Shown here: positions 6,208 through 28,161 of the stretch, in pieces
Layout of the letters: each line of letters begins with the position of its first letter
How positions within the stretch are numbered: position 1 is the first letter of the stretch
Assembly: GCA_963666205.1 (NCBI GenBank)
Contig: OY762654.1
Location: 1 to 64,000, forward strand
Direction of reading: 5' to 3'
Length of the DNA: 64,000 nt
Origin: Synergistales bacterium
GTDB lineage: Bacteria; Synergistota; Synergistia; Synergistales; JAFGMB01
Notes under the pieces: model-generated
What the model saw: the letters and a program-made list of their open reading frames with translations, nothing else
Databases searched by the model: none
Told to the model about the DNA's origin: nothing
Translations under genes and position numbers: made by a program

Positions 6208-6263
6208 TAAAAAGGGAAAAACAGATCCCCCTTGATCAAGGGGGATCTGTTTTTCCCTTTTTA
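6208..6263. terminator. 56-bp perfect palindrome, probable terminator of the AOR operon (possibly bidirectional)
   Basis: TAAAAAGGGAAAAACAGATCCCCCTTGA followed directly by its exact reverse complement; overlaps the AOR stop codon. Confidence 0.8.
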
Positions 6264-8435: not shown

Positions 8436-8466
8436 TTTAATACCCCCCGTTAAACAAAGATTTACT

Positions 8467-8853: not shown

Positions 8854-9092
8854 CTGAAAGCCCCCCATTCATCTCATGGTTTTTAAAAAACTGGAATACA
8901 ATAACTATCTCTAACATCCTAGTTAATATACATGAAAGCAATTGTCTTTTCCACAAAATAAGAACACAACTGCCCCATATCCTTAATGCCGGAAGTCGGG
9001 GAAATATTCCTATTGCCTCTATATCGTACAAAGAGTAAAATGGTCTTGTAGAATAATACAGTTTATTATCTAATAAGACAAGGAGTCTTGTA

Positions 9093-9887
9093 ATGAAAAA
9101 CAGTAATTCCAGTTATCTTATACAATCTCTTCTGACTTCCATTGATGTACTTGACTGTTTTTCAAAGGAAGAAAAAAATCTGGGAATAAGTGAGATAAGC
9201 CGAAAACTTGGTCTAAATAAAAGTCGAGTCCACAGAATTCTTCTGACCTTGGAAGGTCGGGGTATTGTGGTAAGGAATCCCGATACCATGAAATATCGTC
9301 TTGGGCTTAAACTCTTCCAGCTTGGTCACCTTGTGGAAGAACAGCTTGAAATAAGGCACTGTGCACATCCTTTTATGGAGAAACTTGCTCTTGAAACGGA
9401 GGAGACCATTAACCTAAATATTATCTATAACGGGAAAAGAATGAGTGTAAAGAAGATAGAGAGCCGGCATGAGATCAGGCAGGCAGTTGAGCTAGGGAAA
9501 TCGATCCCTATCCATTCGGGTGCTCCTGGAAAGGTTCTTATGGCTTATCTCCCGGTAGATTCCCTCAGGCAACTACTTGAGGAGAATGAACTTACAACCA
9601 TGGGTCCCAATACCATTACAGATGGAGATGACCTTCTCATAGAACTTTCGAGGATAAGAGATCAGGGCTATTCTATAAGCTTTGAGGAAACTTATCTTGG
9701 GGCTGTTTCCATTGCAGCACCTGTAAGGGACTTTTCCGGAAGTGTTATTGCAGCTCTGAGTGTTACTGGGCCTGTTTCAAGATTTTCAGATCAAAACATA
9801 AGCCGTTTCATTCCATTGGTCATAGGATCTGCCAATTCAATCTCAGGGGCCCTTGGATACCGTCTGGAAAAAGAAGAAATACAATAG
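9093..9887 (+). CDS. IclR-family transcriptional regulator
   Basis: HTH LGISEISRKLGLNKSRVHRILLTL, Y.LG, GAPGKVLMA, IRDQGY, SIAAPV..AALSVTGP. Confidence 0.92.
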   Translation: MKNSNSSYLIQSLLTSIDVLDCFSKEEKNLGISEISRKLGLNKSRVHRILLTLEGRGIVVRNPDTMKYRLGLKLFQLGHLVEEQLEIRHCAHPFMEKLALETEETINLNIIYNGKRMSVKKIESRHEIRQAVELGKSIPIHSGAPGKVLMAYLPVDSLRQLLEENELTTMGPNTITDGDDLLIELSRIRDQGYSISFEETYLGAVSIAAPVRDFSGSVIAALSVTGPVSRFSDQNISRFIPLVIGSANSISGALGYRLEKEEIQ

Positions 9888-9928
9888 CTCATTTAGATAA
9901 ATCATCAAATTAAAGGGGATTGATACAG

Positions 9929-10231
9929 TTGAAGACAGATCAGAGCAATGGTCAGGCGGGAACTCTGGAGTCTGGAGATATACTGGTCTTTATTGATCTT
10001 ACAGTGCAGGAAAAGGGGATCAGTATTGACCTGGATAGCCCTTCCATAGTGTCCTTCGGTAAGCAGATTATTTCTGTTATTAGAAACACACTTGATAATC
10101 TCGGTGTCCATGATGCCTATGTAAAGGCCCAGGACAGGGGGGCTCTTGACTGCACTATAAGTGCTCGTGTGGAAACTGCTGCAAGAAGGGCTCTTCATTA
10201 TCCAATCGAGGAGGCTGGAAGATGTCTCTAA
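9929..10231 (+). CDS. citD: Citrate lyase-type acyl carrier protein (gamma subunit)
   Basis: AGTLESGD prosthetic-group Ser motif, FGKQI, QDRGALDCTISARVETA; likely TTG start at 9929 (ORF track 9920). Confidence 0.88.
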   Translation: MKTDQSNGQAGTLESGDILVFIDLTVQEKGISIDLDSPSIVSFGKQIISVIRNTLDNLGVHDAYVKAQDRGALDCTISARVETAARRALHYPIEEAGRCL

Positions 10232-11103
10232 AACAGTTGAGGCGCACAGCGCTATATATTCCAGGTAACGATCCTTCAATGTTGTTGAATTCCGGAATCT
10301 TTGGGGCTGATTCAGTAGTTCTGGATCTTGAAGATGCTGTATCCATAACTGAAAAAGATGCAGCCCGGATATTGGTCAGGAATACCCTGGCATATGTAGA
10401 TTTTCGCGGTGCCGAAGTAGTGGTCAGAATAAATGCGCTTTCTACACCCTATGGTCTGGATGACCTGAAAAGTGTTGTTTCTCCACGGCTGGATGCCATA
10501 AGGCTGCCAAAATGCGAATATGCTCAGGATGTAATAACTGTGAGTGAGATACTTGATCAGATGGAAACAGAAAAGGGTATGGAAAAGGGAAAAATTAAGA
10601 TCATGCCCCTCATTGAATCTGCTCTTGGTTCTTATAATGCAGTGGAAATAGCCTGTGCAGACAGCAGAGTTTCTGCCATAAACTTCGGTGGTGAAGATTA
10701 TACTGCAGATATAGCTGCACAGAGAACAAGAGACGGTATGGAGCTTCTTGATATAAGAATGAAGATCCTACTGGCAGCAAGGATCGCCCACATTGATGCC
10801 CTTGATACTGTTTTCGGAAACGTAAATGATGAAGAGGGTCTTTTAGCAGAAACAAATCTTATCAAACAGTTGGGATTTGATGGCAAGTCGATAATCCACC
10901 CTCGACAGATCAAAACAATTCATAAAGTCTTTACACCGACAGAAAAAGAAATCGCAAAAGCCAGACGGATCGTCCAGGCACTGGAAGAAGCAGAAAAAAA
11001 GAAATCAGGAGTTGTTGCCCTTGATGGCAGAATGATCGATGCTCCTGTTGTAGCAAAGGCCAGAAGAGTCATTGCCTTTGCTGAAGCTATGGGTTTAGCT
11101 TAA
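10222..11103 (+). CDS. citE: Citryl-CoA/ACP lyase-type beta subunit
   Basis: RRTALYIPG, LDLEDAV, VRIN, LIES, FGGEDY, GFDGKSIIHPRQI, DGRMIDAP. Confidence 0.92.
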   Translation: MSLKQLRRTALYIPGNDPSMLLNSGIFGADSVVLDLEDAVSITEKDAARILVRNTLAYVDFRGAEVVVRINALSTPYGLDDLKSVVSPRLDAIRLPKCEYAQDVITVSEILDQMETEKGMEKGKIKIMPLIESALGSYNAVEIACADSRVSAINFGGEDYTADIAAQRTRDGMELLDIRMKILLAARIAHIDALDTVFGNVNDEEGLLAETNLIKQLGFDGKSIIHPRQIKTIHKVFTPTEKEIAKARRIVQALEEAEKKKSGVVALDGRMIDAPVVAKARRVIAFAEAMGLA

Positions 11104-11119: not shown

Positions 11120-12661
11120 ATGTTAAATGCAGCGGGAAGAGTGATACCTGAATTTATTGAAGGGATAGGTTCACTAAAACCCTTTAAAGGGGCCTTTGCA
11201 AGGGTTCCTGATGGTAAAATGAAATCTCCCCTGATTCCACATGTTACCAGGGATACGGAAAAACTTATCCCTTCACTGAGGGATGCCATCCTTGCCACGG
11301 GCTTAAAGGATGGCATGACCATCTCCTTCCATCATCATCTTCGAAATGGTGACTTTGTCGTTGCTCTGGTTCTGGATCTTATAGCTGAAATGGGTTACAG
11401 GAACATAACACTGGCCCCCACTGCTCTTTTCCCTGTTCATAAATCCATCATAAAACATATAGAAAGTGGTGTAGTAAGAGCCATTCAGGGAAGTGTAAAC
11501 GGCCCTGTAGGGAAACTAGCTTCCCACGGAGGATTTGAGGTCCCTGTCCTTTTACGTTCCCATGGTGGACGTGCCCGAGCTATTGAAGCAGGAGATCTTT
11601 CTGTTGATGTTGCTTTTATTGCAGCTCCTTCAGCCGATCGTTACGGGAATCTTAATGGATCTGAGGGACAGTCAGCATGTGGATCTCTTGGATATTGTGT
11701 TGCAGATGCCATGTTTGCAGATAAGGTTGTAGCAATAACGGATAATCTGGTTCAATATCCTCTTTTCCCCATATCCATTCCACAAAACTATGTTGACTAT
11801 GTTGTAAAGATTGATCAGATAGGAGATCCTTCAGGTATTGTTTCAGGTACCCTGAAGGTAACCAGAGACCCCCTTCGGCTTCTAATAGCAGAAAATGCAG
11901 CAAAGGTAATAGATGCTTCCGGACTCATAGAAGATGGTTTTTCTCTTCAGACGGGCGCAGGTGGTATTTCTCTGGCTGTAGCCGATTACATAAGAGAAAT
12001 CATGAAAGAAAGGGATATCCGGGGGAGCTTCGGTTCGGGAGGGATTACCGCTTTCTTTGTCCAAATGTTGCAGGAAGGACTTTTTGAGACATTGCTGGAT
12101 GTCCAATCCTTTGATATGGAAGCTGTCCGATCATTGCGGGAAAACCCTAATCATGTCGAAATGAGCGCTTCATTTTATGCTAACCCCCACAATAAGGGAT
12201 GTGCTGTCAATCAACTGGATGCAGTTATCCTGGGAGCCACACAGGTGGATACCAATTTTAATGTCAATGTCAATACTGAATCTGATGGAGTCCTCCTTCA
12301 TGGCGTTGGTGGGCACATGGATACTGCTGCCGGTGCGAATCTGACAATTATTACAACTCCGCTTCTCCGAGGCAGACTTCCAATGGTAGTTGACGATGTT
12401 CTAACAGTCACCAGTCCTGGAGAAACTATTGATGTTGTAGTTACCGAGAGAGGAATAGCAGTTAATCCACAACGTGCTGAGCTCGAGGTAACCCTTAAAA
12501 GGGCTGGACTACCTGTGGTCAATATTCATGATCTGAAAAATGAAGCGTACAGAATATCAGGAAAGCCTGAAGATCCTGAATTTAAAGATAAGATCATCGG
12601 GGTTGTTGAGTATCGGGATGGTACGGTTATTGATGTGATACGGGAAATCAAAACCTGTTAA
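11120..12661 (+). CDS. citF: Citrate lyase-type alpha subunit (CoA/ACP transferase)
   Basis: TISFHHHLRNGD, RSHGGRARAI, QTGAGG, GGHMDTAAGA, EYRDGTVIDV. Confidence 0.92.
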   Translation: MLNAAGRVIPEFIEGIGSLKPFKGAFARVPDGKMKSPLIPHVTRDTEKLIPSLRDAILATGLKDGMTISFHHHLRNGDFVVALVLDLIAEMGYRNITLAPTALFPVHKSIIKHIESGVVRAIQGSVNGPVGKLASHGGFEVPVLLRSHGGRARAIEAGDLSVDVAFIAAPSADRYGNLNGSEGQSACGSLGYCVADAMFADKVVAITDNLVQYPLFPISIPQNYVDYVVKIDQIGDPSGIVSGTLKVTRDPLRLLIAENAAKVIDASGLIEDGFSLQTGAGGISLAVADYIREIMKERDIRGSFGSGGITAFFVQMLQEGLFETLLDVQSFDMEAVRSLRENPNHVEMSASFYANPHNKGCAVNQLDAVILGATQVDTNFNVNVNTESDGVLLHGVGGHMDTAAGANLTIITTPLLRGRLPMVVDDVLTVTSPGETIDVVVTERGIAVNPQRAELEVTLKRAGLPVVNIHDLKNEAYRISGKPEDPEFKDKIIGVVEYRDGTVIDVIREIKTC

Positions 12662-12706: not shown

Positions 12707-13591
12707 TTGGATAGATCATATTCTCAGATATCTTGGGAAATAAGTGAAAAAGCTATTCGTGGTATGTTACTTGAAGTGGCATGTACCCCCAAACCCGGGC
12801 TCGTAGATCTTACAAATAATGGTGCTAATTGTGATATGGACTTTTTCCTTTTCTGTATGAGCTCAGCTGCTATATGCCAGGATTTCTATCGCTTTGCTTT
12901 GTTGGGCATCGAATCCAGATTGCCAAATGAGGAATTTCTTAAAACCCTTCGTCAACAAGGAATGGTCACTGAGAAAAGAATGTTCCGAGCGACGGATGGG
13001 GTCAATACTCAGAAAGGTCTTATCTTCATAATGGGTGTTATCTGTGCCGTTGCCGGGAGAATGATAATGAAAGGAATGCAATTGAGCGCGAATGCTCTTT
13101 CGAAAGAGATAAGAGCCATTGCTTCAGGTATTTGCGATAGAGAACTCTTTATTCTAGCTAAAAAAATGCCGGACAGAAATCTGACGAAAGGAGAAGAACT
13201 GTATCTGAAATATGGGGTCAGGGGTATAAGAGGTGAGGTGGAGGATGGTTTGCCATCTGTTGTAGATCATGGGCTGCCTGAAATGAGAGCGGGTCTTTCT
13301 CGAGGACTTACATTGAATGATTCTATGGTTAATGCTTTGCTCCGGATCATGTCTGTTTCTGCGGATACAAACGTCATATCCCGCTCCAATTTTTCAACCC
13401 TGAAGGAAAAGGTCCAGCCTATGGCGTCAGAGGCCCTGGAGTTGGGTGGTATTGAAACTGCTAAAGGAAGAGAGTCAATATTAAAAATGGATGAGTTGTT
13501 TATATCAGAAAACATCAACCCCGGAGGCTCAGCAGATCTTCTTGCTGCTACTGTTACCATCCACTTTCTTGAAAAGGCAGGAATTATCTAG
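12707..13591 (+). CDS. citG: Triphosphoribosyl-dephospho-CoA synthase
   Basis: EV..TPKPGLVD, T.GVNTQKG, YGVRGIRGE, DTN..SR, NPGGSADLLA. Confidence 0.92.
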   Translation: MDRSYSQISWEISEKAIRGMLLEVACTPKPGLVDLTNNGANCDMDFFLFCMSSAAICQDFYRFALLGIESRLPNEEFLKTLRQQGMVTEKRMFRATDGVNTQKGLIFIMGVICAVAGRMIMKGMQLSANALSKEIRAIASGICDRELFILAKKMPDRNLTKGEELYLKYGVRGIRGEVEDGLPSVVDHGLPEMRAGLSRGLTLNDSMVNALLRIMSVSADTNVISRSNFSTLKEKVQPMASEALELGGIETAKGRESILKMDELFISENINPGGSADLLAATVTIHFLEKAGII

Positions 13592-13660: not shown

Positions 13661-14215
13661 ATGAACGAAAAGATTAGGGAAGCGATACCTGAAATTGGTT
13701 GGATTGTTGACAAGACTCTGCAGGAGAAAGTGGTCTCAACAATAGAAGATGGACTCAGGTCGGGGGGCTGGGAAGTCGAGGATATGGATAAGATGCCCTT
13801 TACCCTGTTGATTCCTGATTGTCCCGCCTCGCTGCTTGTTCACACAAGGTCCATCGTTCAAATGTGCAGACATATCGGAGACGTATACAACCCGATATAC
13901 CATAACCAGGGAGATTTTACCCTGGACAGGGATGTACTGATCGCTGGAGCTATTCTTCATGATGTAGGCAAGCTCGTTGAAATGGAGTTCAAGGACGGTA
14001 AGTATGTCAAATCCCAATATGGGAAGGACCTACGACATCCCTTTTCAGGTGCGGTACTAGCTGCCAGAAATGGTCTATCAAGCGATATATGTCACATCAT
14101 AGCAACTCATGCCGGGGAAGGTAATGGCAGACATCGCAGTCCTGAGGCTGTTGTTGTGCATCATGTGGATTTTATCAATTTCGAGAGCATCAAGTCTCAC
14201 CTGGGACTTCTTTAG
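13661..14215 (+). CDS. HD-domain metal-dependent phosphohydrolase
   Basis: H...AGAILHDVGK...RHPFSG...HIIATH...HHVD; RBS GGAGGTG. Confidence 0.85.
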   Translation: MNEKIREAIPEIGWIVDKTLQEKVVSTIEDGLRSGGWEVEDMDKMPFTLLIPDCPASLLVHTRSIVQMCRHIGDVYNPIYHNQGDFTLDRDVLIAGAILHDVGKLVEMEFKDGKYVKSQYGKDLRHPFSGAVLAARNGLSSDICHIIATHAGEGNGRHRSPEAVVVHHVDFINFESIKSHLGLL

Positions 14216-14271: not shown

Positions 14272-15552
14272 ATGGGAAAAACCACAATAGAGAAAATTAT
14301 AGGCAGAGCATCCGGCAAGGATGTTAAACCCGGAGACAGGGTATGGTGCGAAATCGATATATCTTCTGCACGAGATTTTGCAGGTCCTAACTGCTGTCTA
14401 CAGTTTGACGAAGTTACAGAGGGTCGGGGTAAGGTCTGGAATCCTGAAAAGATTGCGTTTACATTCGATCTACAGGCTCCCTCCCATACTGAAAAAGTAT
14501 CAAATAATCAGAAGATAATTCGTGAATTTGCAAAAAAGCAGGGTATAGGCAAAGTATTTGATATTAACTGGGGAATTGGCCAGCATGTCATGCTTGAGAA
14601 TGGAGTAGTAAAACCTGGACATGTTGTGCTCGGTACTGATAGTCACATGAACCTGCTCGGAGGGGCTGGTATTTTCGCGACCGGTGTAGGTAATACTGAT
14701 ATCGTAGCATCGTGGATACTGGGCAAGTTATGGTTTCGAGTTCCTGAAACTGTCAGAATCTCTGTAACAGGAGAATTTCAAACCGGAGTCTGTATGAGAG
14801 ACTTCCTGACATTCCTTGTAGGAAACCTTAAAGCAGATGGACTTCTCTACAAAGCTGCAGAATTTTATGGACCAGTTATTGAAAGGTCTTCTCTTGCCGA
14901 GAGGATAACCCTCTGTTCCATGATCACTGAAATGAGTGGGAAAATAGGCCTAATCCAGCCTAATGGAGAAGTCCTAAGATGGCTTGTTGAGAGAGGCGGT
15001 GAAGATGTCAGGGAAAGTGTTGAATTTATGAAAGCTGATCAGGATGCAATATATTGTGAAGACCTTTGTTTTGATGTATCTGACCTTGAACCTCTCGTAT
15101 CTGCACCACATGCTCCAGATAACGTGAAAAAGGTTAGTGAAGTTGCAGGAACCAGGCTAGATCAGGTTCACATTGGATCCTGTACCAATGGCAGGTTTGA
15201 GGATATAACTGCAGCATTTGAAGTTTTAAAAGCTGCCGATTTCAAAATTAATCCTATGACCAGGTGCATAGTTACCCCTGCTACAAGAGAGGTTATGTCC
15301 CAGTGTGCCAGAGCCGGTTATATAGAAAAATTCATTGATGCGGGAGTTGTATTCACCAATCCTACATGTAGTCTGTGTACTGCACAGCACTATGGAGCCC
15401 TACCCTCTGATGACGTTGGTATGTCTACTACCAACAGGAACTTCCTCGGAAAAGTTGGTAAAGGAAGCAGCACTTATCTTGCCAGCCCGATGACAGCCAT
15501 GGCATCAGCTGTAAGAGGAATGATAACAGATCCCAGAGATATTCTTGGTTAA
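14272..15552 (+). CDS. Aconitase-family hydratase large subunit (LeuC/HacA-like), divergent copy 1
   Basis: MGKT..EKI, GTDSH, IGSCTNGR, CSLC, STTNRNF.G, YLASP; the usual HD/DH/HQ motifs are altered. Confidence 0.88.
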   Translation: MGKTTIEKIIGRASGKDVKPGDRVWCEIDISSARDFAGPNCCLQFDEVTEGRGKVWNPEKIAFTFDLQAPSHTEKVSNNQKIIREFAKKQGIGKVFDINWGIGQHVMLENGVVKPGHVVLGTDSHMNLLGGAGIFATGVGNTDIVASWILGKLWFRVPETVRISVTGEFQTGVCMRDFLTFLVGNLKADGLLYKAAEFYGPVIERSSLAERITLCSMITEMSGKIGLIQPNGEVLRWLVERGGEDVRESVEFMKADQDAIYCEDLCFDVSDLEPLVSAPHAPDNVKKVSEVAGTRLDQVHIGSCTNGRFEDITAAFEVLKAADFKINPMTRCIVTPATREVMSQCARAGYIEKFIDAGVVFTNPTCSLCTAQHYGALPSDDVGMSTTNRNFLGKVGKGSSTYLASPMTAMASAVRGMITDPRDILG

Positions 15553-15567
15553 AGGAGTGGGAAAGTT

Positions 15568-16080
15568 ATGGGAAGTTCTTTGATAAAAGGAAGAGCCTGG
15601 GTTTTCGGCGATGATGTTGATACTGATCTGATCTATCATAATAAATATCTGGCAGTGACAGACCCTGCGGAAATGCCTAAATATGCATTTGAATATTACC
15701 CCGGAAAAGAAAACTTTGCCAGAGAAGTGAAGGATGGAGATGTAGTAGTTGCAGGGAAAAACTTCGGATGTGGATCAAGTAGGGAACATGCTGTCTACTG
15801 CCTTAAGGAGGGAGGAATTCCTGTGGTCCTCGCGGAATCCTTCTCCAGAATCTATTACCGGAATGCTGTAAACAATGGTTATCCGGTACTTGTTGCTCCA
15901 GGAATCTCTTCTAAATTCAAGGATGGAGATGACATAGAAGTTAACCTTGATACCGGTGAAATCAAAAATCTGAGTTCCGGAGAGAAGATACATGGCGATG
16001 CTGTTACGGACCTTGAAAAAGAAATAATGGCCCATGGTGGTCTTATTCAGTATATCAAGGCCCATGCCGTGAAGGAATAG
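15568..16080 (+). CDS. Aconitase-family hydratase small subunit (LeuD/HacB-like), copy 1
   Basis: FGDDVDTD, AGKNFGCGSSREHA, SFSRIYYRN, HGGLI. Confidence 0.88.
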   Translation: MGSSLIKGRAWVFGDDVDTDLIYHNKYLAVTDPAEMPKYAFEYYPGKENFAREVKDGDVVVAGKNFGCGSSREHAVYCLKEGGIPVVLAESFSRIYYRNAVNNGYPVLVAPGISSKFKDGDDIEVNLDTGEIKNLSSGEKIHGDAVTDLEKEIMAHGGLIQYIKAHAVKE

Positions 16081-16092: not shown

Positions 16093-17352
16093 ATGGGTAA
16101 GACTTTTGCCGAAAAAGTTCTTGGCAAGGCAACTGGAAATGAAGTCTCTGCAGGTCAGATAGTCACAGTTGAACCCCATTTTTGTATGAGTCATGATAAT
16201 GCTGCGCCAATTTCAAAGATCTTCAAGGAAATTGGCGTCAATAAAGTGTGGGACAGCAGCAGACTGGTATTTATCCTTGACCATGCTATCCCGGCTCCGA
16301 CTGATAAACATGCACTGAATCACAAGGTTATTAGAGGATTTGTCAAAGATCAGGGGATCGAGCATTTTTACGATGTCATGAGCAATGGCGGTGTATGTCA
16401 TCAGGTTATGTGTGAAAAGGGGTATGCTCTGCCAGGACTTGTAATTGTTGGTAGTGATAGTCACACCTGTACTTATGGAGCTTTTGGTGCCTTCTCAACA
16501 GGCATTGGCCGAACTGAAATGGCGGCTACGTGGGCTACAGGAAAGATCTGGTTTAAAGTTCCGGACTCAATGAAGATAAGCGTGAATGGAACCTTTGGAA
16601 GGGGCGTCAGTGCAAAGGATCTGATCCTGAGGATTATGGGTGATATCCATTCAGATGGAGCAGACTATATGTCTGTTGAATTTCATGGTAAGGCTATTGA
16701 AGCTATGACCCTCGGATCCAGAATGACCCTATGTAATCTTGGTATAGAAATGGGAGCAAAAAATGCGGTCTGTCCGCCTGATACTAAGGTTCTGAACTTC
16801 ATTAAAGACAAGGCTAAGTCTGATAAATGGGAGTCAATATGGGCAGATGAAGATGCCTACTATGAAAAAGTACTTGAATATGATCTGGCAAATATCGAAC
16901 CAGGTGTAGCCAAGCCTCATACTGTGGATAACTATTCTCCCATTACAGAAGTTAAGGGTACATCCATAGATCAGGCTTTTCTGGGGACATGTACTAACGG
17001 TCGACTTCAGGATCTTGAGGAAGCAGCTGAGGTGCTTGAAGGAGGAAAAGTTGCTGTTAGAACTATTGTAATACCTGCTTCCTGGGAGATTTACAGAAAA
17101 GCAATGTCAAAAGGCATAATGGATATCCTTCTTGATGCAGGATGTATACTTGCTAACCCTGGTTGTGGTCCATGCATGGGCAATCATGAAGGGATACTTG
17201 CTCCAGGCGAAACCTGCATTTCAACGGCGAACAGGAATTTCCAAGGAAGAATGGGAAATAAGGAGAGCTATATCTACCTTGCCAGCCCGGCAACAGTAGC
17301 CGCTTCTGCCCTGAAGGGTGAAATAACTGATCCCAGGGAGGTGCTTGTTTAA
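16093..17352 (+). CDS. Aconitase-family hydratase large subunit, copy 2 (homoaconitase-like)
   Basis: CMSHDN, LDH, GVCHQV, GSDSHT, LGTCTNGR, CGPC, STANRNF.GRMG. Confidence 0.88.
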   Translation: MGKTFAEKVLGKATGNEVSAGQIVTVEPHFCMSHDNAAPISKIFKEIGVNKVWDSSRLVFILDHAIPAPTDKHALNHKVIRGFVKDQGIEHFYDVMSNGGVCHQVMCEKGYALPGLVIVGSDSHTCTYGAFGAFSTGIGRTEMAATWATGKIWFKVPDSMKISVNGTFGRGVSAKDLILRIMGDIHSDGADYMSVEFHGKAIEAMTLGSRMTLCNLGIEMGAKNAVCPPDTKVLNFIKDKAKSDKWESIWADEDAYYEKVLEYDLANIEPGVAKPHTVDNYSPITEVKGTSIDQAFLGTCTNGRLQDLEEAAEVLEGGKVAVRTIVIPASWEIYRKAMSKGIMDILLDAGCILANPGCGPCMGNHEGILAPGETCISTANRNFQGRMGNKESYIYLASPATVAASALKGEITDPREVLV

Positions 17353-17849
17353 TGAAAGTTAAAGGAAAGGTCTGGAAATATGGAGATGATGTGAACACTG
17401 ATGTCATTTTCCCGGGGAAATACACATATACTGTTCTCGATCCCGCAGAAATGGGCAAATATGCTTTGGAGGACCTTGATCCCGAGTTTGCACGAAAAGC
17501 TCAACCTGGTGATGTGATTGTAGCAGGAAAGAACTGGGGATGTGGTTCATCCAGAGAACAGGCTGCAACCTGTCTGACATCCTTAAAAGTCGGAGCAGTT
17601 GTAGCCAGGAGTTTTGCCCGTATATTCTACCGCAATGCAATTAACCAGGGACTACCTGTTATTCAGTCCCCTGCTGCGGTAGCTTCCATTGAAGCTGGTG
17701 AGCAAATCGAAATAGATTTTGAGAATGGACTCATCAGGACAGATCAGGGTAAGGAATTTGCTTTTGCACCCATTCCAGAATATGTCAGGGGAATACTTCA
17801 GGATGGTGGCCTTGTTGAACATATAAGAAAAAGCCTGGGGCTGGATTGA
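17352..17849 (+). CDS. Aconitase-family hydratase small subunit, copy 2 (homoaconitase-like)
   Basis: NTDVIFPGKYTY, NWGCGSSREQAA, SFARIFYRN; TAATG coupling to the large subunit. Confidence 0.88.
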   Translation: MKVKGKVWKYGDDVNTDVIFPGKYTYTVLDPAEMGKYALEDLDPEFARKAQPGDVIVAGKNWGCGSSREQAATCLTSLKVGAVVARSFARIFYRNAINQGLPVIQSPAAVASIEAGEQIEIDFENGLIRTDQGKEFAFAPIPEYVRGILQDGGLVEHIRKSLGLD

Positions 17850-17925: not shown

Positions 17926-19050
17926 ATGGGGACAAACAGGAACGTTCTTGAAATTGCCGTAAAAAAAGACAGATACAAGGTTGCCTACATTCCTGGTGAC
18001 GATTCCGGTTTCGATGTAATGGAAGCCTGTATGGAGGTTATGGAAGCACTGAATCCACCCATAGATTGGGTCCGTGCAGATGCAGGGTGGTGCATGTGGG
18101 AGAAATATGGGAATACAGTTCCAGACGAAACTAAAGAAATTCTCCAGAATACTGATGCTGCTTTGATGGCAGCTATAACATCGAAACCTGGGGTCAAGGG
18201 TTTTAAATCTGCCATTCTTCAAATGAGACAGATATTTGACCTTTATATTAATCTCAGACCTGCAAAATCGATGCCTGGAGTACCTTCATATCGTGATGAT
18301 ATAGACATGGTCCTGTTCAGGGAAAATACAGAAGGTCTCTATTCAGCTGTAGAATGGCGTCCATTTCCCGAAGAACTTTTATCAATACATCCCAATCTTG
18401 AAAGATACAGGGGGAAAAAGGAACTTGCAGCTTCACTTCGCGTTTTTTCGTATGAAGGTTGCGAGAGGATTATCAGAGCGGCTTTCGAGTATGCGCAAAG
18501 TACAGGAAGAAATAAAGTCACGGTTGTAGAGAAGCCCAATGTAATCAGAGCTACAGGTGGTCTATTTCTTGATGTTGCAAAGGAAGTCTGTAAGGACTAT
18601 CCGGGGGTTGAATGGAATATGGAGAATGTAGATGCTACATGTATGTGGCTTATCAAAAATCCTCAGGATTACGAAGTAGTCGTTACCACAAATATGTTTG
18701 GAGATATAGTGTCTGATGAAGCTTCCCAGCTTGTCGGAGGTATGGGAGTCACAGCCAGTGGAAATATTGGTGAAAACTATGCACTTATGGAACCTTGTCA
18801 TGGTTCAGCCCCAAAATATGCAGGGCAGTACAAGCTTAATCCTGTAGCAATGCTTAATGCTGCTGGAATGCTCCTGGATTACCTCGGACTTGAAAAATAT
18901 ACTCACCGAATGGAAAAGGCAATGTTCGATGTTCTTAGGGAGGGAAAGGTCCTTACCTATGACCTGTTGAGGGATAAAGGTGTTGCTGATTGGGAAACAA
19001 AGGCCTCTTCGACCCTTGATATGGCAAGGGAAATCGTAAAAAGACTCTAA
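17926..19050 (+). CDS. Beta-decarboxylating dehydrogenase (isocitrate/isopropylmalate/homoisocitrate family), probably NADP(H)-dependent homoisocitrate dehydrogenase
   Basis: SAILQMRQIFDLYINLRP, RENTEGLY, EKPNV, NMFGDIVSD, EPCHGSAPKYAG, TYDLLR. Confidence 0.85.
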   Translation: MGTNRNVLEIAVKKDRYKVAYIPGDDSGFDVMEACMEVMEALNPPIDWVRADAGWCMWEKYGNTVPDETKEILQNTDAALMAAITSKPGVKGFKSAILQMRQIFDLYINLRPAKSMPGVPSYRDDIDMVLFRENTEGLYSAVEWRPFPEELLSIHPNLERYRGKKELAASLRVFSYEGCERIIRAAFEYAQSTGRNKVTVVEKPNVIRATGGLFLDVAKEVCKDYPGVEWNMENVDATCMWLIKNPQDYEVVVTTNMFGDIVSDEASQLVGGMGVTASGNIGENYALMEPCHGSAPKYAGQYKLNPVAMLNAAGMLLDYLGLEKYTHRMEKAMFDVLREGKVLTYDLLRDKGVADWETKASSTLDMAREIVKRL

Positions 19051-19054
19051 CAGC

Positions 19055-19370: not shown

Positions 19371-20903
19371 ATGGCAGAAGAAAAAGTAGGTAGAAAACCG
19401 AGTTTTGCCGAAGCGTTGCTGGTCCTGGTCGTTATTGCTGTTGTTATTAGTGGAAGCGTTCTGAAATTAGGTCTTGATGCTCATGTACCGATTTTCCTTT
19501 GTGCTGTGTTTACCGCGTTCATGGGTATTTTTGTTTTGAAATATTCATGGAAAAAGATTGAAAATGGGATGATCAATGGAATTATGATCGCTATGCAGGC
19601 AATCCTGATCCTTACCATAGTCGGTTCTATGATCGGTGCCTGGGTACAGAGTGGAGTAGTCCCGTCACTTATCTATTATGGTCTGGATCTCCTTTCTCCG
19701 GGGTTTTTCCTTCTCGCGACACTTCTGGTATGTTCCATAGTTTCTCTTGCTACCGGAAGTTCCTGGACCACATCAGGTACAGTTGGTATTGCTATGATGG
19801 GTATCGCTGCCGGACTTGGCATCCCTGCTCATGTTACAGCCGGATTTATCATCTCGGGTGCTTATTTTGGTGATAAGATGTCTCCCCTTTCAGATACTAC
19901 AAATCTGGCACCTGCAGTTGCCGGTAATGACCTTTTTGACCACATAAGGGCCATGCTCTGGACGACAGGCCCTACCTATATCATTGTCGCAGTAATTGCA
20001 GGATTTATGGGTATGAAATATGCCGGTGGTGCACTTGATGCTTCAAAGATATCCCTCATCCAACAGGTTATGCAGGCTGAATTTCATGTAAGTCTTCTTG
20101 GTTTTGTACCCCCGGTTCTTGTTATTATCATGGCAACTGCAAAGGTCCCAGCCATACCCGGGCTTATAATTGGAATGCTTGCCGGTTCGGTTATGTCTCT
20201 TTTCCAGGGAGTTGGTCTTGCCGATGTCATGGGTGCCCTTCACTATGGTTATGAGACGAGTATCGCAAATGCGGTAGCAGAAGCGGGTAGCATGGATGCT
20301 GTAACTGAAGCGCTGAAAGGTGTGGCACTCGTAGGAGATAACATCAGTCTTGATATGGTCCATGAAGTGGGGAGCCTCCTCGCAGATCTTCTAACAAGAG
20401 GTGGACTGGATGGGATGATGTGGACAATCTCCCTGATCCTTCTGGCCCTGGCTCTTGGCGGTATCATGGAAACCTGCGGATTTCTTGAAGTCCTCCTTGA
20501 GAAAATCCTGAAAATGGTTACGACAGTAGGAGGACTTGTTACATCTGTTATCGCCTCCTGTGTGTTCTCCAACCTGTTCCTCGGCGATCAGTATCTTGCA
20601 ATTGTTATGCCTGGAAGACTTTTCAAGACAGGTTTTGAGAATTTTGAATACAAGGGTAAGAAGGGACTTGCGCCAAGGATGCTTTCACGAAGCCTTGAAG
20701 ATGCTGGTACCCTTACTTCGGCTCTGGTTCCCTGGAATACCTGTGGAGCTTACCAGTCCAGTGTCCTTGGTGTTCATCCCTTCGCTTATGCTCCTTATGC
20801 TTTCCTTAACTGGCTGAATCCACTTGTAGCGATTACCATTACTTATCTGGGAATAGGTGTTTTCTGGAAAGAAGACATGGAGAACAATAAAGAGGAATCC
20901 TGA
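19371..20903 (+). CDS. nhaC: NhaC-family Na+/H+ antiporter / amino-acid transporter
   Basis: Polytopic membrane protein with TGSSWTT.GT.G, SGAYFGDKMSPLSDTTNLA, GDQYLAI, LEDAGT..S.LVPWN. Confidence 0.88.
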   Translation: MAEEKVGRKPSFAEALLVLVVIAVVISGSVLKLGLDAHVPIFLCAVFTAFMGIFVLKYSWKKIENGMINGIMIAMQAILILTIVGSMIGAWVQSGVVPSLIYYGLDLLSPGFFLLATLLVCSIVSLATGSSWTTSGTVGIAMMGIAAGLGIPAHVTAGFIISGAYFGDKMSPLSDTTNLAPAVAGNDLFDHIRAMLWTTGPTYIIVAVIAGFMGMKYAGGALDASKISLIQQVMQAEFHVSLLGFVPPVLVIIMATAKVPAIPGLIIGMLAGSVMSLFQGVGLADVMGALHYGYETSIANAVAEAGSMDAVTEALKGVALVGDNISLDMVHEVGSLLADLLTRGGLDGMMWTISLILLALALGGIMETCGFLEVLLEKILKMVTTVGGLVTSVIASCVFSNLFLGDQYLAIVMPGRLFKTGFENFEYKGKKGLAPRMLSRSLEDAGTLTSALVPWNTCGAYQSSVLGVHPFAYAPYAFLNWLNPLVAITITYLGIGVFWKEDMENNKEES

Positions 20904-20968: not shown

Positions 20969-21400
20969 ATGCCTGAGAAATTAACAACAACTGTGGGATC
21001 CCCCCTCCCCAAAGGGATGAAGTCCCTTTCTTTAGCAATAGGCCTGATAATAATTTCTAGCGGCCTTTACCAGTTTTTACATGGCAGTAATGGAGCGTTT
21101 ACTTATATTGGCGTAGGCTTTGTCTGCATTGCCTGTTGTTCTTACAATAAAGCCTTCTCTGTCTCTTCTGAGGGTATAGTGAGAGAGCAGCGCATACTGG
21201 GAAGAGCTTACAAGGAAGTTTTACCATGGGGAGATGTTAAATCTGTCAGTTTTGCATTTAGAGGTGACAAGCTCATGGCCTTATTCGAAATAGGGCTGAA
21301 GGGGTGGCGTGTCCTTTTTTCACGAGATGCAGAACTTCGCTTAAGAAATATCATATCTGAAAATCGCCCTGACATCCAAGTTGAAGTCTTGCAGAAATAG
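20969..21400 (+). CDS. Hypothetical membrane protein (two N-terminal TM helices, small soluble C-terminal domain)
   Basis: 143-aa ORF with RBS GAGGAG and two hydrophobic segments. Confidence 0.65.
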   Translation: MPEKLTTTVGSPLPKGMKSLSLAIGLIIISSGLYQFLHGSNGAFTYIGVGFVCIACCSYNKAFSVSSEGIVREQRILGRAYKEVLPWGDVKSVSFAFRGDKLMALFEIGLKGWRVLFSRDAELRLRNIISENRPDIQVEVLQK

Positions 21401-21562: not shown

Positions 21563-22924
21563 ATGACCGAACATTGTTCTTCCTTTTCAATTCCACCCAA
21601 AGAAGTTTTTTCAACAATAGCTGAATGGATGCTGAGAGATGGTTTTGACATAGTTATCGATATGGAAAAATCCAGAGGGAGCCATATCGTTGATGCTGCT
21701 ACAGGCGATGCATGGCTTGACTTCTATACGTTTTTTGCTTCAGCACCCTTTGGTATGAATCATCCCAAGGTCGACAATGAAGAATTCAAGGAAAAGATTT
21801 ATCGTGCAGCAATAAACAAAGTAGCTAATTCGGATATATATACTCAGGAAATGGCAGAATTTGTTCATACTTTTGGTGAAGTTGCCATGCCAGAAGGGTT
21901 TAAGCATCTTTTCCTGATCGATTATGGAACATTAGCAGTAGAAAATGCTCTTAAAGTTGCCATGGATTGGAAAGTAAGAAGACTTCTAGCAGCTGGTAAG
22001 GTCAATAAAGGAGATGCAATTCGGGGGAAAAGGGGAACAAAGGTGATTTACTTCAATGAAGCTTTTCATGGAAGAAGTGGATATACCCTTAGCTTGACTA
22101 ATACCCATGATCCAAATAAGCATCAGTATTTTGCCAAGTTCAATGAGTGGATCAAGGTTTTGAATCCCAGAATATATTGGCCCTTGGAAGATAATCTCAA
22201 TATGGTAAAGTGGGCTGAGCTCCAATCGCTTAAACAGATCCAACAGGCTATAGAGGATAATCCTGATGATATCTGTGCCATGATCATTGAAACGATCCAG
22301 GGAGAAGGCGGAGATAATCAATTCAGGAAAGAATTTTTCCAGAGTCTGCGGAAAATCTGTGACGAAAATGAAATACTTCTGATATTTGATGAAGTTCAGT
22401 GTGGGATGGGTATTACCGGTAAGATGTGGGCCTGGGAGCATTATGGAGTTAAACCCGATATCTTTGCCTTCGGTAAGAAAGCGCAGATATGTGGCATAGT
22501 TGCAGGGCCAAGGATAGATGAAGTAGAGGGAAACTGCTGGGTTACTTCCAGTCGGATCAATTCTACATGGGGCGGAAGTGTTGTAGATATGGTCAGATCC
22601 CAAAGATTTCTCGAGATATACAGGGATGAAAATATTCTTGATTATGTAGCAAATACTGTTGGACCTGCCCTTTATAAGGGACTTCTTGAACTGCAGAAAG
22701 AATTTCCAATCCTGCAGAATGTAAGGGGAAAGGGGCTTATGTGCGCCTACGATCTTCCTGATAATGAAACCCGCAATAAACTTCTGAAGCTTCTTCATGC
22801 TCAGAAAATGCTTATTTTACCCTGTGGAACTCTATCAATACGTTACAGACCTGCTCTGAATGTTCCCCTTGAAGATATTGCCAGGGGTATGGACATTACC
22901 AGAGAGGCTCTAAAGAAGATCTAA
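21563..22924 (+). CDS. lat: L-lysine 6-transaminase (class III PLP aminotransferase)
   Basis: AVENALKVAMDWK, FHGRSGYTLSLTNT, IQGEGGD, FDEVQCG, FGKK, SSRINSTWGG match the LAT subfamily. Confidence 0.88.
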   Translation: MTEHCSSFSIPPKEVFSTIAEWMLRDGFDIVIDMEKSRGSHIVDAATGDAWLDFYTFFASAPFGMNHPKVDNEEFKEKIYRAAINKVANSDIYTQEMAEFVHTFGEVAMPEGFKHLFLIDYGTLAVENALKVAMDWKVRRLLAAGKVNKGDAIRGKRGTKVIYFNEAFHGRSGYTLSLTNTHDPNKHQYFAKFNEWIKVLNPRIYWPLEDNLNMVKWAELQSLKQIQQAIEDNPDDICAMIIETIQGEGGDNQFRKEFFQSLRKICDENEILLIFDEVQCGMGITGKMWAWEHYGVKPDIFAFGKKAQICGIVAGPRIDEVEGNCWVTSSRINSTWGGSVVDMVRSQRFLEIYRDENILDYVANTVGPALYKGLLELQKEFPILQNVRGKGLMCAYDLPDNETRNKLLKLLHAQKMLILPCGTLSIRYRPALNVPLEDIARGMDITREALKKI

Positions 22925-26823: not shown

Positions 26824-27033
26824 TTGGCCAAGAAGTTTCAGGTAATAGTAAATGGTAGCTGGTGCAAGGGTTGCAATCTATGTGTCCAGATCTGTCCTAA
26901 AAAAGTCCTTGAACTGAACGATAGACTCACGTCATATGCTGCTCGTCAGGACGACTGTATTGGTTGCAGGCAATGTGAGAATATTTGCCCGGACCTGGCA
27001 ATTACCGTTAAGGAGGACCAAAATAATGACTGA
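26824..27033 (+). CDS. 2-oxoacid:ferredoxin oxidoreductase delta subunit (ferredoxin)
   Basis: CKGCNLCVQICP and CIGCRQCENICPDLAI. Confidence 0.88.
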   Translation: MAKKFQVIVNGSWCKGCNLCVQICPKKVLELNDRLTSYAARQDDCIGCRQCENICPDLAITVKEDQNND

Positions 27034-28159
27034 TGTTGCTTTCTGGCAAGGGAACCAGGCTTTGGCTCAAGGTGCCCTTGCTGCCGGATGCACTTTTTTT
27101 GCTGGATATCCTATAACTCCCTCTACAGATGTTATGGAAGAAATGGCTAAGGAACTGCCTATTCGTGGAGGTAAGTTTATCCAGATGGAAGATGAAATTG
27201 CCAGTATGGCCGCGACCATCGGTGGATCAATTACAGGCAGAAAATCGATGACTGCCTCATCGGGTCCAGGTATATCTCTCAAACAGGAAAATCTTGGACT
27301 TGCCTATATGGCAGAGATCCCTCTTGTGCTTGTTAATGTTATGAGAGGAGGTCCATCTACAGGTGTTCCCACAAAAATAAGCCAGATGGACGTTATGCAG
27401 GCGAGGTGGGGAACTCATGGAGATCATGGAACTATTGCCTATTCCCCTTCTTCTGTTCAGGAATGTTTTGATATAGCCATTAAAGCCTTCAACGCGGCAG
27501 AGCGTTACCGTCAGCCTGTCTTGATTCTCAGTGATGAAGTTCTTGGGCATATGAGAGAAAAAGTGATTATACCCCCTGCGGGTTCATATGAGATAGTTGA
27601 AAGGAAAAGACCATGTACTGACAAATCTAAATTCATTCCATACCTTGCTGATCCAGAAGACGATATTCCTGCTCTGGCTTCTTTCGGAGACGGTTACAGG
27701 TGGCATGTCACCGGTCTGACCCATAATGATTTCGGTTTTCCCTCCGCAAAGGAGGATGAAGTGGAAAAAAATATTAAAAGGCTTGTTCGCAAGATAAACC
27801 GTTTCCGTGATGATATAGTCGAATATGAAACATTAGCAATAGATGATGCTGAGATCGTTGTCCTTTCCTTTGGTACTGTGGCCCGGTCAAGTATCAGGGC
27901 AGTTAATGAGGCGAGGAGGAGAGGGATTAAAGTGGGCCATTTCAGGCCTGTTACCCTTTGGCCCTTCCCAGATAAAGAGATATACCAGATAGCCAAGAAA
28001 TCAAAGACTATAATTGTTCCAGAACTTAACTGTGGACAAATGGTTCTTGAAGTTGAAAGGGCAGTTCATGGAAAAACAAAAGTTATTGGAAAAAGCCTTG
28101 TTAATGGCGAGCTTTTTACTCCAGATGAAATATTTAAATCTATTCAGGAGGTGGCTTAA
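27026..28159 (+). CDS. 2-oxoacid (2-oxoglutarate-type):ferredoxin oxidoreductase alpha subunit
   Basis: FFAGYPITP, QMEDEIAS, RGGPSTG.PT, PELNCGQ; start ATG 27026 after AGGAGG. Confidence 0.9.
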   Translation: MTDVAFWQGNQALAQGALAAGCTFFAGYPITPSTDVMEEMAKELPIRGGKFIQMEDEIASMAATIGGSITGRKSMTASSGPGISLKQENLGLAYMAEIPLVLVNVMRGGPSTGVPTKISQMDVMQARWGTHGDHGTIAYSPSSVQECFDIAIKAFNAAERYRQPVLILSDEVLGHMREKVIIPPAGSYEIVERKRPCTDKSKFIPYLADPEDDIPALASFGDGYRWHVTGLTHNDFGFPSAKEDEVEKNIKRLVRKINRFRDDIVEYETLAIDDAEIVVLSFGTVARSSIRAVNEARRRGIKVGHFRPVTLWPFPDKEIYQIAKKSKTIIVPELNCGQMVLEVERAVHGKTKVIGKSLVNGELFTPDEIFKSIQEVA

Positions 28160-28161
28160 AA

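Follow-up and report, generated by a model that had tools for sequence, protein, structure and literature searches.

A putative NADP(H)-dependent homoisocitrate dehydrogenase in a citrate-lyase-type operon of Synergistota and a possible reverse alpha-aminoadipate route of lysine catabolism

Background

Dehydrogenases acting on isocitrate and its homologues are known from several well described systems. Methanogens employ AksF (NCBIfam models NF040619 and NF040626) oxidatively, together with a synthase, in the 2-oxoacid elongation of coenzyme B formation, and the homoisocitrate dehydrogenase (HICDH) of Thermus thermophilus (structures 1X0L, 3ASJ and 4YB4) belongs to the alpha-aminoadipate pathway of Thermus and fungi. 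To our knowledge, the characterised homoisocitrate dehydrogenases use NAD. Isocitrate is the substrate of the NADP-dependent Icd of Escherichia coli and of the homotetrameric NAD isocitrate dehydrogenases (6LKY, 6LTF/6M3S), and the CitCDEFXG systems of Klebsiella, E. coli and lactic acid bacteria contain an alpha/beta/gamma lyase that depends on an acyl carrier protein (ACP). In this study, we analyzed a beta-decarboxylating dehydrogenase encoded on a 64,000-nucleotide stretch of a Synergistales bacterium (positions 1 to 64,000 of contig OY762654.1, assembly GCA_963666205.1; hereafter the window), where it shares an operon with two LeuCD/HacAB-like hydratase pairs and a complex of the citrate-lyase type. 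Its substrate loop is of the homoisocitrate type and its cofactor site is that of Icd, and we propose, at a probability of roughly 45%, that it catalyzes the NADPH-dependent reductive carboxylation of 2-oxoadipate, the product being isomerised to homocitrate and cleaved to acetate and 2-oxoglutarate.

The locus shares features with each of these systems and differs from all of them. AksF belongs to the same fold family, no curated model scores higher with the dehydrogenase than AksF2_Meth, and an AksF equivalog from Methanocaldococcus (locus L043) carries the same T-S...S-x-I signature; moreover, the large subunit of the second hydratase pair (AcoL2) scores best with methanogen HacA among the equivalogs. 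Unlike AksF, whose rows in our alignment have an NAD-type Asp-Ile (D-I) pair, the dehydrogenase has Lys-Tyr (K-Y), scores far below the AksF cut-offs, falls into a separate clade and is partnered in its operon by a lyase. T. thermophilus HICDH matches residues 17-347 with an E value of 1.4e-69 and has T-S and A-I in common with it, but reads G-A-I-R85 and HGSAPDIAG (NAD-type) against S-A-I-L and HGSAPKYAG. The homotetrameric NAD isocitrate dehydrogenases are the best solved relatives by sequence and are similar in length, yet with R/S-S-[VI]-N and HGSAPDIA they differ in both the substrate and the cofactor signature. Like CitCDEFXG, the locus encodes an ACP-dependent alpha/beta/gamma lyase, with CitG in the operon and CitC and CitX in the genome; in contrast to CitCDEFXG, it adds the two hydratase pairs, an HD-domain protein and the homoisocitrate-type dehydrogenase, its core lacks a citrate carrier and an oxaloacetate decarboxylase, its CitE stays under the curated cut-off, and related genomes hold a separate locus with Tct, aconitase, Icd and CitDEF. 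With the fungal and Thermus alpha-aminoadipate pathway the locus would share its proposed intermediates and the use of two aconitase-family enzymes for the isomerisation, which the fungal pathway needs for converting homocitrate to homoisocitrate (PMC3556520); the route proposed here would however run in reverse, with a lyase for the synthase and an NADP-type enzyme, in hosts that are strictly anaerobic amino-acid fermenters.

Results and discussion

Substrate and cofactor signatures of the dehydrogenase

Translation of the gene gave one open frame of 374 aa. A preliminary description, made from the letters of the window, had pointed to the motifs KSAILQMR, RENTEGLY, HGSAPKYAG and TYDLLR, and all four were found in place: KSAILQMR covers residues 94-101 (bases 18205-18228) at the end of TSKPGVKGFKSAILQMR (residues 85-101), RENTEGLY covers residues 132-139, and the other two are listed in Table 1. 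Residues 18-363 matched the Pfam family PF00180 (Iso_dh) with 291 bits (cut-off 27), which places the protein in the superfamily, and both its fold and its catalytic framework are ordinary for this well known group. None of the curated NCBIfam equivalog models reached its cut-off, and relatives are labelled in the databases as 'isocitrate/isopropylmalate dehydrogenase family protein' or '3-isopropylmalate dehydrogenase'. The host genome (2.95 Mb, one contig) has two PF00180 genes only, the other being LeuB in a leuCDBA operon.

The motifs were then surveyed in 121 proteins, comprising the dehydrogenase and its best 120 relatives, of which those with source names are nearly all from Synergistota. 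The substrate loop follows the pattern [KR]SAI[LI]Q[MIL]R or similar, with Ser95 kept in 120 and Ile97 in 119 of the 121 members. P-K-Y occurs in at least 109 members and P-K-H in eight, among the patterns listed; T-Y-D is present in all 101 members that the listed patterns cover, and 90 of these have the Arg four residues past the Tyr (T-Y-D-x-x-R), the remaining eleven ending earlier. The motifs are thus more than a chance occurrence in one protein and are conserved family-wide.

By BLASTP, the dehydrogenase is 31% identical to E. coli K-12 Icd (locus L109). HGSAPKYAGQYKLNP aligns under H339-GTAP-K344-Y345-AGQDK-V351-NP of Icd and TYDLLR under T-Y391-DFE-R395, so that K344, Y345, Y391 and R395, which we take to be the contacts of Icd to the 2'-phosphate of NADP, are all matched (Table 1). 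Two further positions show conservative changes, Leu304 standing under Val351 and Lys under Arg292, both contributed by the second subunit in Icd, and the framework residues R119 and D283 are likewise matched by alignment. NAD-type relatives have D-I at the first cofactor pair. The dehydrogenase is therefore very likely specific for NADP(H), as the preliminary description had proposed. Its E. coli motifs HGTAPKY and SLNVALR agree with the fetched Icd sequence; the third, given as TYDFAR, actually reads TYDFER. The two enzymes also differ in that the window's protein has 374 instead of 416 aa and lacks the Icd inserts (40 gap positions), and they stand in different clades.

On the substrate side, S95-A-I97-L-Q-M-R101 lies under Icd S113-L-N115-V-A-L-R119, and T85-S86 under T104-T105. 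Asn115 of Icd is thus replaced by Ile and Thr105 by Ser. Ser113 and Asn115 are presumably the Icd residues that bind the gamma-carboxylate of isocitrate, and the Asn is absent in all 121 family members. In T. thermophilus HICDH, the aligned segment reads T-S...G-A-I-R-Y-L-R, with the same T-S (residues 85-86) and A-I (96-97) as in the dehydrogenase, which accordingly has both features of the homoisocitrate type, namely Ile in place of Asn115 and Ser at the position of T. thermophilus Ser72.

An alignment of 82 rows, consisting of the dehydrogenase and those of 81 fetched loci, was used to relate these positions to gene context. S-x-N was found in 31 rows, all with Thr at the S86 position and an NAD-type D-I pair. 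S-x-I was found in 17 rows, with Ser at the S86 position in 15, K-Y in 12 and D-I in five. Several S-x-I rows are placed independently by an equivalog or a cluster: the Methanocaldococcus enzyme L043 passes the AksF_Meth equivalog (633 bits, cut-off 500); L070 (Chloroflexia) lies between equivalogs of HacB (271 bits, cut-off 229) and LysX (340 bits, cut-off 275.6) and is also flanked by an ArgC-type gene; L045 (Chloroflexi) precedes LysX and an ArgC/LysY-type gene; and L018, from a gammaproteobacterial metagenome-assembled genome, stands within a cluster of LysY, a homocitrate-synthase-like gene, HacA, a LeuD-like gene, the dehydrogenase, LysZ and LysJ. The Chloroflexi dehydrogenases adjoining LysX read RSPIVALR and QSPIVALR. 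Because of these placements, the loop can be assigned, by sequence comparison, to the type that occurs in enzymes expected to act on homoisocitrate.

A quick maximum likelihood tree of 87 rows (IQ-TREE, LG+G4, branch support by SH-aLRT only) put the dehydrogenase in a clade of 12 rows with an SH-aLRT of 100, together with enzymes of other Synergistota, Coatesbacteria, Elusimicrobiota, Zixibacteria and Anaerolineae, all of them K-Y; its sister clade, also K-Y, consists of Bathyarchaeota. E. coli Icd and the S-x-N enzymes are grouped together in another part of the tree (support 93, node not starred). We consider it likely that the substrate is homoisocitrate-like, in whichever direction the enzyme works. 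The alignments with Icd and T. thermophilus HICDH, which the preliminary description had suggested as a check, uphold its S-x-I loop and K-Y cofactor signature; its homoisocitrate reading of the loop is supported by alignment, by the contexts of the S-x-I rows and by the tree, although the curated homoisocitrate models all stay below cut-off.

One step of that description does not hold. It had taken the NADP-type site as a sign of reductive carboxylation, and the dehydrogenase of L018, with S-P-I and K-Y, lies in the middle of a biosynthetic cluster. Cofactor type was consequently rejected as a pointer to direction, and the NADP form of the S-x-I dehydrogenases is probably not unique to catabolism. 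Canonical NADP-dependent Icd also works oxidatively. Of the enzymes with a homoisocitrate context, L043, L070 and L045 carry the NAD-type D-I pair. The comparison therefore supports the type of substrate and of cofactor as first described, but not the direction deduced from the cofactor. From the sequences, what is unusual here is the combination of a substrate signature of the homoisocitrate type with the complete NADP signature of Icd and with an operon that ends in a lyase.

The operon and its conservation in Synergistota

The genes between 9093 and 22924 all lie on the forward strand, in the order IclR, CitD, CitE, CitF, CitG, HD, first hydratase pair (large and small subunits AcoL1 and AcoS1), second pair (AcoL2 and AcoS2), dehydrogenase, NhaC, a 143-aa protein and lysine 6-transaminase (LAT), and none of them encodes a synthase (Table 1). 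CitF is the sole CitF of the host genome (one PF04223 match). With CitX and CitC found elsewhere in the genome, at 1166082 and 1168297, all six components of a citrate lyase complex (CitD, CitE, CitF, CitG, CitX and CitC) are present, and the lyase can therefore be made active. We know of no residue-level determinant of substrate choice in CitDEF-type complexes.

Table 1. Features of the dehydrogenase locus in the window
Feature	Position	Strand	Evidence or remark
Aldehyde:ferredoxin oxidoreductase (6261-8435) and polyferredoxin (8467-8868), divergent from the regulator	6261..8868	-	PF01314, PF02730; ferredoxin models
IclR-family regulator, head of operon (a GntR/FCD regulator instead in other Synergistota)	9093..9887	+	Profile match
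CitD-type acyl carrier protein of the lyase	9920..10231	+	TIGR01608, 84.8 bits (cut-off 63.5)
CitE-type beta subunit (acyl-ACP lyase)	10222..11103	+	TIGR01588, 378 bits (under cut-off 443); PF03328
CitF-type alpha subunit (acetyl-ACP:tricarboxylate transferase)	11120..12661	+	TIGR01584, 660 bits (cut-off 501)
CitG, triphosphoribosyl-dephospho-CoA synthase, makes the prosthetic group	12707..13591	+	TIGR03125, 268.2 bits (under cut-off 272.3)
HD-domain protein, always ahead of the two hydratase pairs	13661..14215	+	PF01966
First LeuCD/HacAB-like hydro-lyase pair (large 14272-15552, small 15568-16080)	14272..16080	+	Small-subunit specificity loop K-Y-L-A-V
Second hydro-lyase pair (large 16093-17352, small 17352-17849)	16093..17849	+	Loop K-Y-T-Y-T-V; best equivalog HacA_Meth, 491 bits (cut-off 550)
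Beta-decarboxylating dehydrogenase PF00180, 374 aa; proposed NADP(H)-dependent homoisocitrate dehydrogenase/2-oxoadipate reductive carboxylase	17926..19050	+	Profile matches, alignment, tree
Substrate-side segment S86 to R101 (T-S-KPGVKGF-K-S95-A-I97-L-Q-M-R101)	18181..18228	+	Alignments to Icd and T. thermophilus HICDH
HGSAPKYAG, residues 292-300	18799..18825	+	K297 and Y298 align with Icd K344 and Y345; kept family-wide
TYDLLR, residues 344-349	18955..18972	+	Y345 and R349 align with Icd Y391 and R395; family-wide
NhaC-family transporter, proposed basic amino-acid (lysine) carrier	19371..20903	+	TIGR00931, 442.6 bits (cut-off 370)
143-aa protein	20969..21400	+	Weak bacterial PH-domain match, PF20794, 24.9 bits (cut-off 25)
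L-lysine 6-transaminase (LAT)	21563..22924	+	TIGR03251, 568 bits (cut-off 520.8)
2-oxoglutarate/2-oxoacid:ferredoxin oxidoreductase alpha, beta and gamma, 8 kb downstream	26936..29543	+	Profile matches

A sample of 201 Synergistota genomes was searched, a full-length protein of at least 56% identity being counted as an orthologue. The dehydrogenase has such an orthologue in 64 of them and a fragment in one more. Among 20 orthologue loci fetched for synteny, 15 keep the order HD, AcoL1, AcoS1, AcoL2, AcoS2, dehydrogenase, (CitD), CitE, CitF; tblastn located CitD in 12 of these. The other genome from the window's genus (G135) shares the rearranged order seen in the window, including NhaC and LAT. 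In the 11 loci scanned for flanking genes, a GntR/FCD regulator precedes the HD gene in eight, the flanks are otherwise unrelated between loci, and the core operon has no transporter; neither a citrate carrier nor an oxaloacetate decarboxylase was found in the core operon of the fetched loci. In four loci of one family (f12), the dehydrogenase stands apart from the other operon genes, with Kor genes about 6 kb away, and the block HD, AcoL1, AcoS1, AcoL2, AcoS2 is intact elsewhere in the genome (two f12 loci). At one f12 locus (L130, genome G005), the gene after this block (11835-13190 of that locus) encodes a pyridine-nucleotide-disulphide oxidoreductase that includes a dimerisation domain and is of the family to which lipoamide dehydrogenase and soluble transhydrogenase belong. 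Two loci encode proteins 99.8% and 100% identical to source-named proteins of Thermanaerovibrio acidaminovorans and T. velox; the T. acidaminovorans protein P0038 is 99.8% identical to the dehydrogenase of the operon-bearing locus L104.

Contigs from RNA libraries of marine-sediment metatranscriptomes (two studies) cover 21 to 29 of the 30 bins of positions 8800-23500 and bridge the junctions AcoS2-dehydrogenase, dehydrogenase-NhaC, NhaC-143-aa gene and 143-aa gene-LAT, evidence of a kind that shows neither strand, level nor a single transcript and may include DNA carry-over. One such contig (run X5) lacks 39 bases between the dehydrogenase and NhaC (window 19050-19090) and is probably a strain variant. 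The 320-base gap between these two genes yielded no RNA element or lysine riboswitch at the Rfam gathering thresholds.

A parallel canonical citrate locus

CitF occurs in 159 of the 201 genomes, often in 2 to 5 copies, and some genomes have a second locus of a similar plan. L122 (genome G022) and L123 (G081) show the order TctA, one-piece aconitase (642-655 aa), isocitrate dehydrogenase, CitD, CitE, CitF, and the isocitrate dehydrogenases of both read GGGIRSLNV, HGTAPKYAG and TYDLAR and are of the E. coli Icd type. L120 (G004) has the same block of aconitase, isocitrate dehydrogenase, CitE and CitF, TctA and CitD being present only at L122 and L123 among the three; G004 has in addition a separate locus with GntR, TctCBA and CitDEF. 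From a reading of two tables, E. coli-type Icd is encoded in 22 of the 201 genomes, and 16 of these 22 also hold the dehydrogenase studied here. Since a lyase, an isomerase and a dehydrogenase are thus found twice on the same plan in one genome, the two systems are most simply assigned different substrates. We take the citrate system to be the locus that combines a tricarboxylate carrier with canonical Icd and a true aconitase, and the operon of the window's type then probably handles a homologue of citrate. In our judgement this coexistence is the strongest argument against isocitrate as the substrate of the dehydrogenase. The aconitase-Icd-CitEF locus links 2-oxoglutarate, isocitrate and citrate to citrate lyase, and may itself represent an undescribed route from glutamate to acetate.

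Proposed pathway

For the favoured reading, reductive carboxylation of 2-oxoadipate, we infer the following route, including every step outside the operon. Lysine would enter the cell, possibly via the NhaC/ArcD-like carrier, and lysine 6-transaminase would convert it to 2-aminoadipate semialdehyde. The semialdehyde would be oxidised, possibly by the neighbouring aldehyde:ferredoxin oxidoreductase, and then transaminated to 2-oxoadipate, from which the dehydrogenase would form homoisocitrate with CO2 and NADPH. The two hydratase pairs would lead from homoisocitrate through homoaconitate to homocitrate, and the ACP-dependent CitDEF-type lyase would cleave homocitrate to acetate and 2-oxoglutarate. 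The latter would return to the transaminations or be oxidised by 2-oxoglutarate:ferredoxin oxidoreductase, for which the downstream 2-oxoacid:ferredoxin oxidoreductase is a possible candidate.

The reductive direction is suggested by the citrate-lyase-type complex and the lack of a synthase in the operon, not by the cofactor. At millimolar concentrations, the citrate-lyase reaction lies far towards acetate and the 2-oxoacid. As the core operon has no external tricarboxylate carrier, the substrate of the lyase is most simply made in the cell from a 2-oxoacid. Further support for this direction comes from the LAT and NhaC/ArcD-like genes directly downstream of the dehydrogenase, and from the operon in T. 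acidaminovorans, which is reported to form acetate and propionate from lysine, as it does from glutamate and 2-oxoglutarate (PMC3035242). Propionate from lysine carbon would be expected to arise through 2-oxoglutarate and not through glutaryl-CoA. The same source reports citrate lyase activity in T. acidaminovorans extracts and isocitrate dehydrogenase activity as not detected; the latter was discounted as support, because the genome also encodes a canonical Icd and the assay hence says little either way.

The NhaC-family protein also resembles the NhaC-type arginine/ornithine antiporter ArcD (384 bits, under the cut-off of 650), and the best solved relative of the transaminase is the lysine epsilon-aminotransferase of Mycobacterium tuberculosis (2CIN, E 1.6e-114). 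By analogy with the fungal pathway, the conservation of two hydratase pairs appears more in keeping with a system for homocitrate than with one for citrate. A stereochemical reason for the second pair may also be suggested on textbook grounds. A lyase of the pro-3S type is expected to cleave (S)-homocitrate, and HacAB-type enzymes make (R)-homocitrate; the opposite enantiomer would be needed, and one of the two dedicated hydratases may deliver the one that the lyase accepts.

A number of observations weigh against this reading. The mismatch between (R)-homocitrate from HacAB-type enzymes and a pro-3S-type lyase is itself one of them. All homoisocitrate models stayed below their cut-offs (AksF2_Meth 339/540, AksF_Meth 273/500 and iso_homocit_dh 186/680 bits), and NADP is uninformative on direction because of the K-Y enzyme L018. 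Arg85 of T. thermophilus HICDH, which we take to be a specificity determinant, is replaced by Leu98; AksF-type and Chloroflexi enzymes are likewise without an equivalent, so Arg85 does not define the whole homoisocitrate family. CitF passes the curated citrate-lyase cut-off, and an ordinary citrate lyase could be meant. The hydratases are not of the methanogen homoaconitase type by profile (HacA_Meth 491 and 352 of 550 bits, HacB models at most 172 of 230), both AcoS1 and AcoS2 lack the Y-L-R-T loop of the methanogen homoaconitase MJ1271, and Y-L-A-V of AcoS1 is closest to the isopropylmalate/citramalate-isomerase type Y-L-V-Y. As to lysine, a LAT-family match is present in all 64 orthologue-bearing genomes (table reading; stop codons in two of the matches, in G013 and G198), but LAT is found in 87 of the 201 genomes and the co-occurrence is strongly confounded by phylogeny; since relatives are not independent, it is consistent with the lysine idea and does not test it. 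LAT adjoins the dehydrogenase only in the window's genus (G000, the host genome, and G135), which among the 20 loci is also the only place of NhaC adjacency. In seven other genomes LAT lies among housekeeping-type genes (MreB, flagellar genes, MetK) or other unrelated genes, and no catabolic context was seen in these seven neighbourhoods or around the second copy of the host genome. Finally, a complete LysW, LysX, LysY, LysZ, LysJ and LysK cluster in the host genome allows a biosynthetic use of homoisocitrate.

A search of five genomes for the alpha subunit of D-lysine 5,6-aminomutase (PF09043) gave no match, and as control genomes gave none either, this says nothing on absence. In G013, an in-frame TAA interrupts the LAT-family gene, whose score is under the family cut-off; the gene may be broken or affected by a sequencing error. 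The second LAT-family copy of the host genome, at 1910210, is 79% identical to that of the window; it lies beside a carbamate-kinase-like gene and ornithine carbamoyltransferase (locus L110, 1902-1920 kb) and may act on ornithine.

Alternative readings

The LysW-type cluster just mentioned, at 943-949 kb (L126), is the basis of a biosynthetic reading, in which the dehydrogenase would oxidise homoisocitrate to 2-oxoadipate with NADP+ in the first half of a LysW-type aminoadipate pathway to lysine, the hydratases would act as homoaconitase, and homocitrate would come from a short LeuA-like synthase or from the lyase running backwards at high acetate. LysW (54.4 bits, cut-off 53.2) and LysX (282 bits, cut-off 275.6) are above their cut-offs, with LysY/ArgC and LysZ-, LysJ- and LysK-like genes beside them; the host genome also has four short LeuA/NifV-like synthases, no PF00180 gene besides LeuB other than this one, and a counterpart in L018, where a K-Y enzyme is part of a biosynthetic cluster. 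LysX was found in 49 of the 64 dehydrogenase-bearing genomes (table reading), and in f12, the family with the nearest relatives beyond the genus (71-74% identity), the dehydrogenase is not close to any lyase and the genomes hold a cluster of LysX, LysW, LysX, LysY, LysZ, LysJ and LysK. The window's dehydrogenase, however, is 930 kb from the LysW cluster, and the genes with which it is co-oriented, at tight spacing, include a lyase and no synthase; the LysW cluster contains the host genome's single ArgC-family gene and may therefore serve arginine, and LysA (diaminopimelate decarboxylase) is over its cut-off (456.8 versus 297.9 bits). No LysX was found in 15 of the 64 genomes, including G011 (100% complete) and G075 (99% complete), 30 LysX genomes lack the dehydrogenase, and the four short synthases each lie beside an aminotransferase, most with a transporter near, and none beside hydratases. 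On this balance the biosynthetic role appears rather unlikely.

Two other readings assign the operon a different substrate. An unusual NADP isocitrate dehydrogenase would interconvert 2-oxoglutarate, isocitrate and citrate, with citrate cleaved to acetate and oxaloacetate, for glutamate or citrate fermentation or for the supply of 2-oxoglutarate. It would suit a host genome that has no other candidate isocitrate dehydrogenase, no PF00285 citrate synthase and a single CitF above the citrate-lyase cut-off, as well as the citrate lyase activity reported for T. acidaminovorans extracts, and the best solved relatives are NAD isocitrate dehydrogenases (6LKY, 5.5e-73; 6LTF, 3.4e-70). T. thermophilus HICDH, with Ile at the same position, reportedly prefers isocitrate. 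Yet the isocitrate type takes in every one of the 31 rows with S-x-N and not one of the 17 with S-x-I, the canonical Asn115 is missing throughout the family, and the isocitrate dehydrogenase models are all under their cut-offs (PRK08997 281/510, PRK09222 275/509, mito_nad_idh 260/432 and prok_nadp_idh 193/567 bits); the 16 genomes with a canonical S-L-N Icd, accompanied in three examined by its own aconitase and CitDEF, and the strict conservation of two hydratase pairs where citrate needs one aconitase only, make this reading quite improbable. Equally improbable is another 3-substituted malate, such as 3-methylmalate, 3-isopropylmalate or a longer homologue, handled by the same reversed elongation (for example 2-oxobutyrate to pyruvate and acetate via citramalate, or 2-oxoisocaproate to 2-oxoisovalerate). 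The AcoS1 loop points that way, as do the hydrophobic residues 97 and 98 (I-L), presumably matched by hydrophobic residues in isopropylmalate dehydrogenases; CitDEF-type complexes include citramalate lyase, and the 2 to 5 CitF copies of many Synergistota suggest several substrates. Against it, the LeuB-type Glu-x-x-Leu-Leu loop is absent (the host's own LeuB reads ILERGILLTLR), the enzyme retains Ser95 and Ser86 in common with those of homoisocitrate context, and anaerobes pass 2-oxobutyrate and branched 2-oxoacids directly to ferredoxin oxidoreductases. Glutamate mutase E exceeded its cut-off in just three of the 201 genomes, none of them G000, G004 or G013, which makes a methylaspartate/citramalate context unlikely, and the variant with CitDEF as citramalate lyase was rejected.

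Other genes of the host genome and the window

The four short LeuA/NifV-like synthases (about 400-415 aa) are located at 1886, 1579, 1996 and 2303 kb (L085-L088). L085-L087 each adjoin an aminotransferase and a transporter (NhaC, TRAP or Na-dependent carrier), L086 being also beside KorABG and SucCD, and L088 is flanked by a 2-hydroxyacid dehydrogenase and a TRAP transporter. In the f12 genomes, two LysX paralogues flank LysW. The host genome encodes six aconitase-family large subunits; besides LeuCD and the two pairs of the window, three further LeuCD/HacAB-like pairs lie at 595, 1813 and 1819 kb (L083, L084), one beside a methylisocitrate-lyase-family gene and an IclR regulator and one beside a KDPG/KHG-aldolase-like gene.

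Among the genes near the operon, the aldehyde:ferredoxin oxidoreductase is a possible oxidant of 2-aminoadipate semialdehyde. Positions 622-3746 of the window encode a SoxB-like FAD oxidoreductase, a 2Fe-2S protein, a SoxA-like pyridine-nucleotide-disulphide oxidoreductase and a 4Fe-4S protein; the set looks like a proline/pipecolate/opine-dehydrogenase complex and could bear on cyclic amino-acid catabolism. Rfam matches in the whole window were limited to two tRNA genes (23099-23170 and 31099-31171) and a bacterial class A RNase P RNA (40229-40575), and a V-type ATPase operon starts near 31.7 kb.

Conclusions

A search of the literature for a homocitrate lyase, a reverse aminoadipate pathway or a catabolic reductive carboxylation of 2-oxoadipate found none, most subscription journals being outside its coverage. 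We put forward tentatively, as possible but doubtful, that a reverse alpha-aminoadipate pathway with an ACP-dependent homocitrate lyase serves the catabolism of lysine in many Synergistota and perhaps in further anaerobes. With the same reserve, the reverse route may be seen as a CO2-dependent shortening of the carbon chain that parallels the canonical module of 2-oxoglutarate, isocitrate, citrate and citrate lyase in the same genomes.

If true, this would add a new route of lysine fermentation through 2-oxoglutarate and acetate, and would explain why propionate and not butyrate is formed from lysine in Thermanaerovibrio. Two new activities would be involved, an NADPH-dependent 2-oxoadipate reductive carboxylase and a homocitrate lyase, and the chemistry that elongates 2-oxoacids in the biosynthesis of leucine, lysine and coenzyme B could be turned round for catabolism when a lyase replaces the synthase. 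It would also improve the annotation of these genes and allow lysine turnover in anaerobic digesters, sediments and gut Synergistota to be modelled more accurately.

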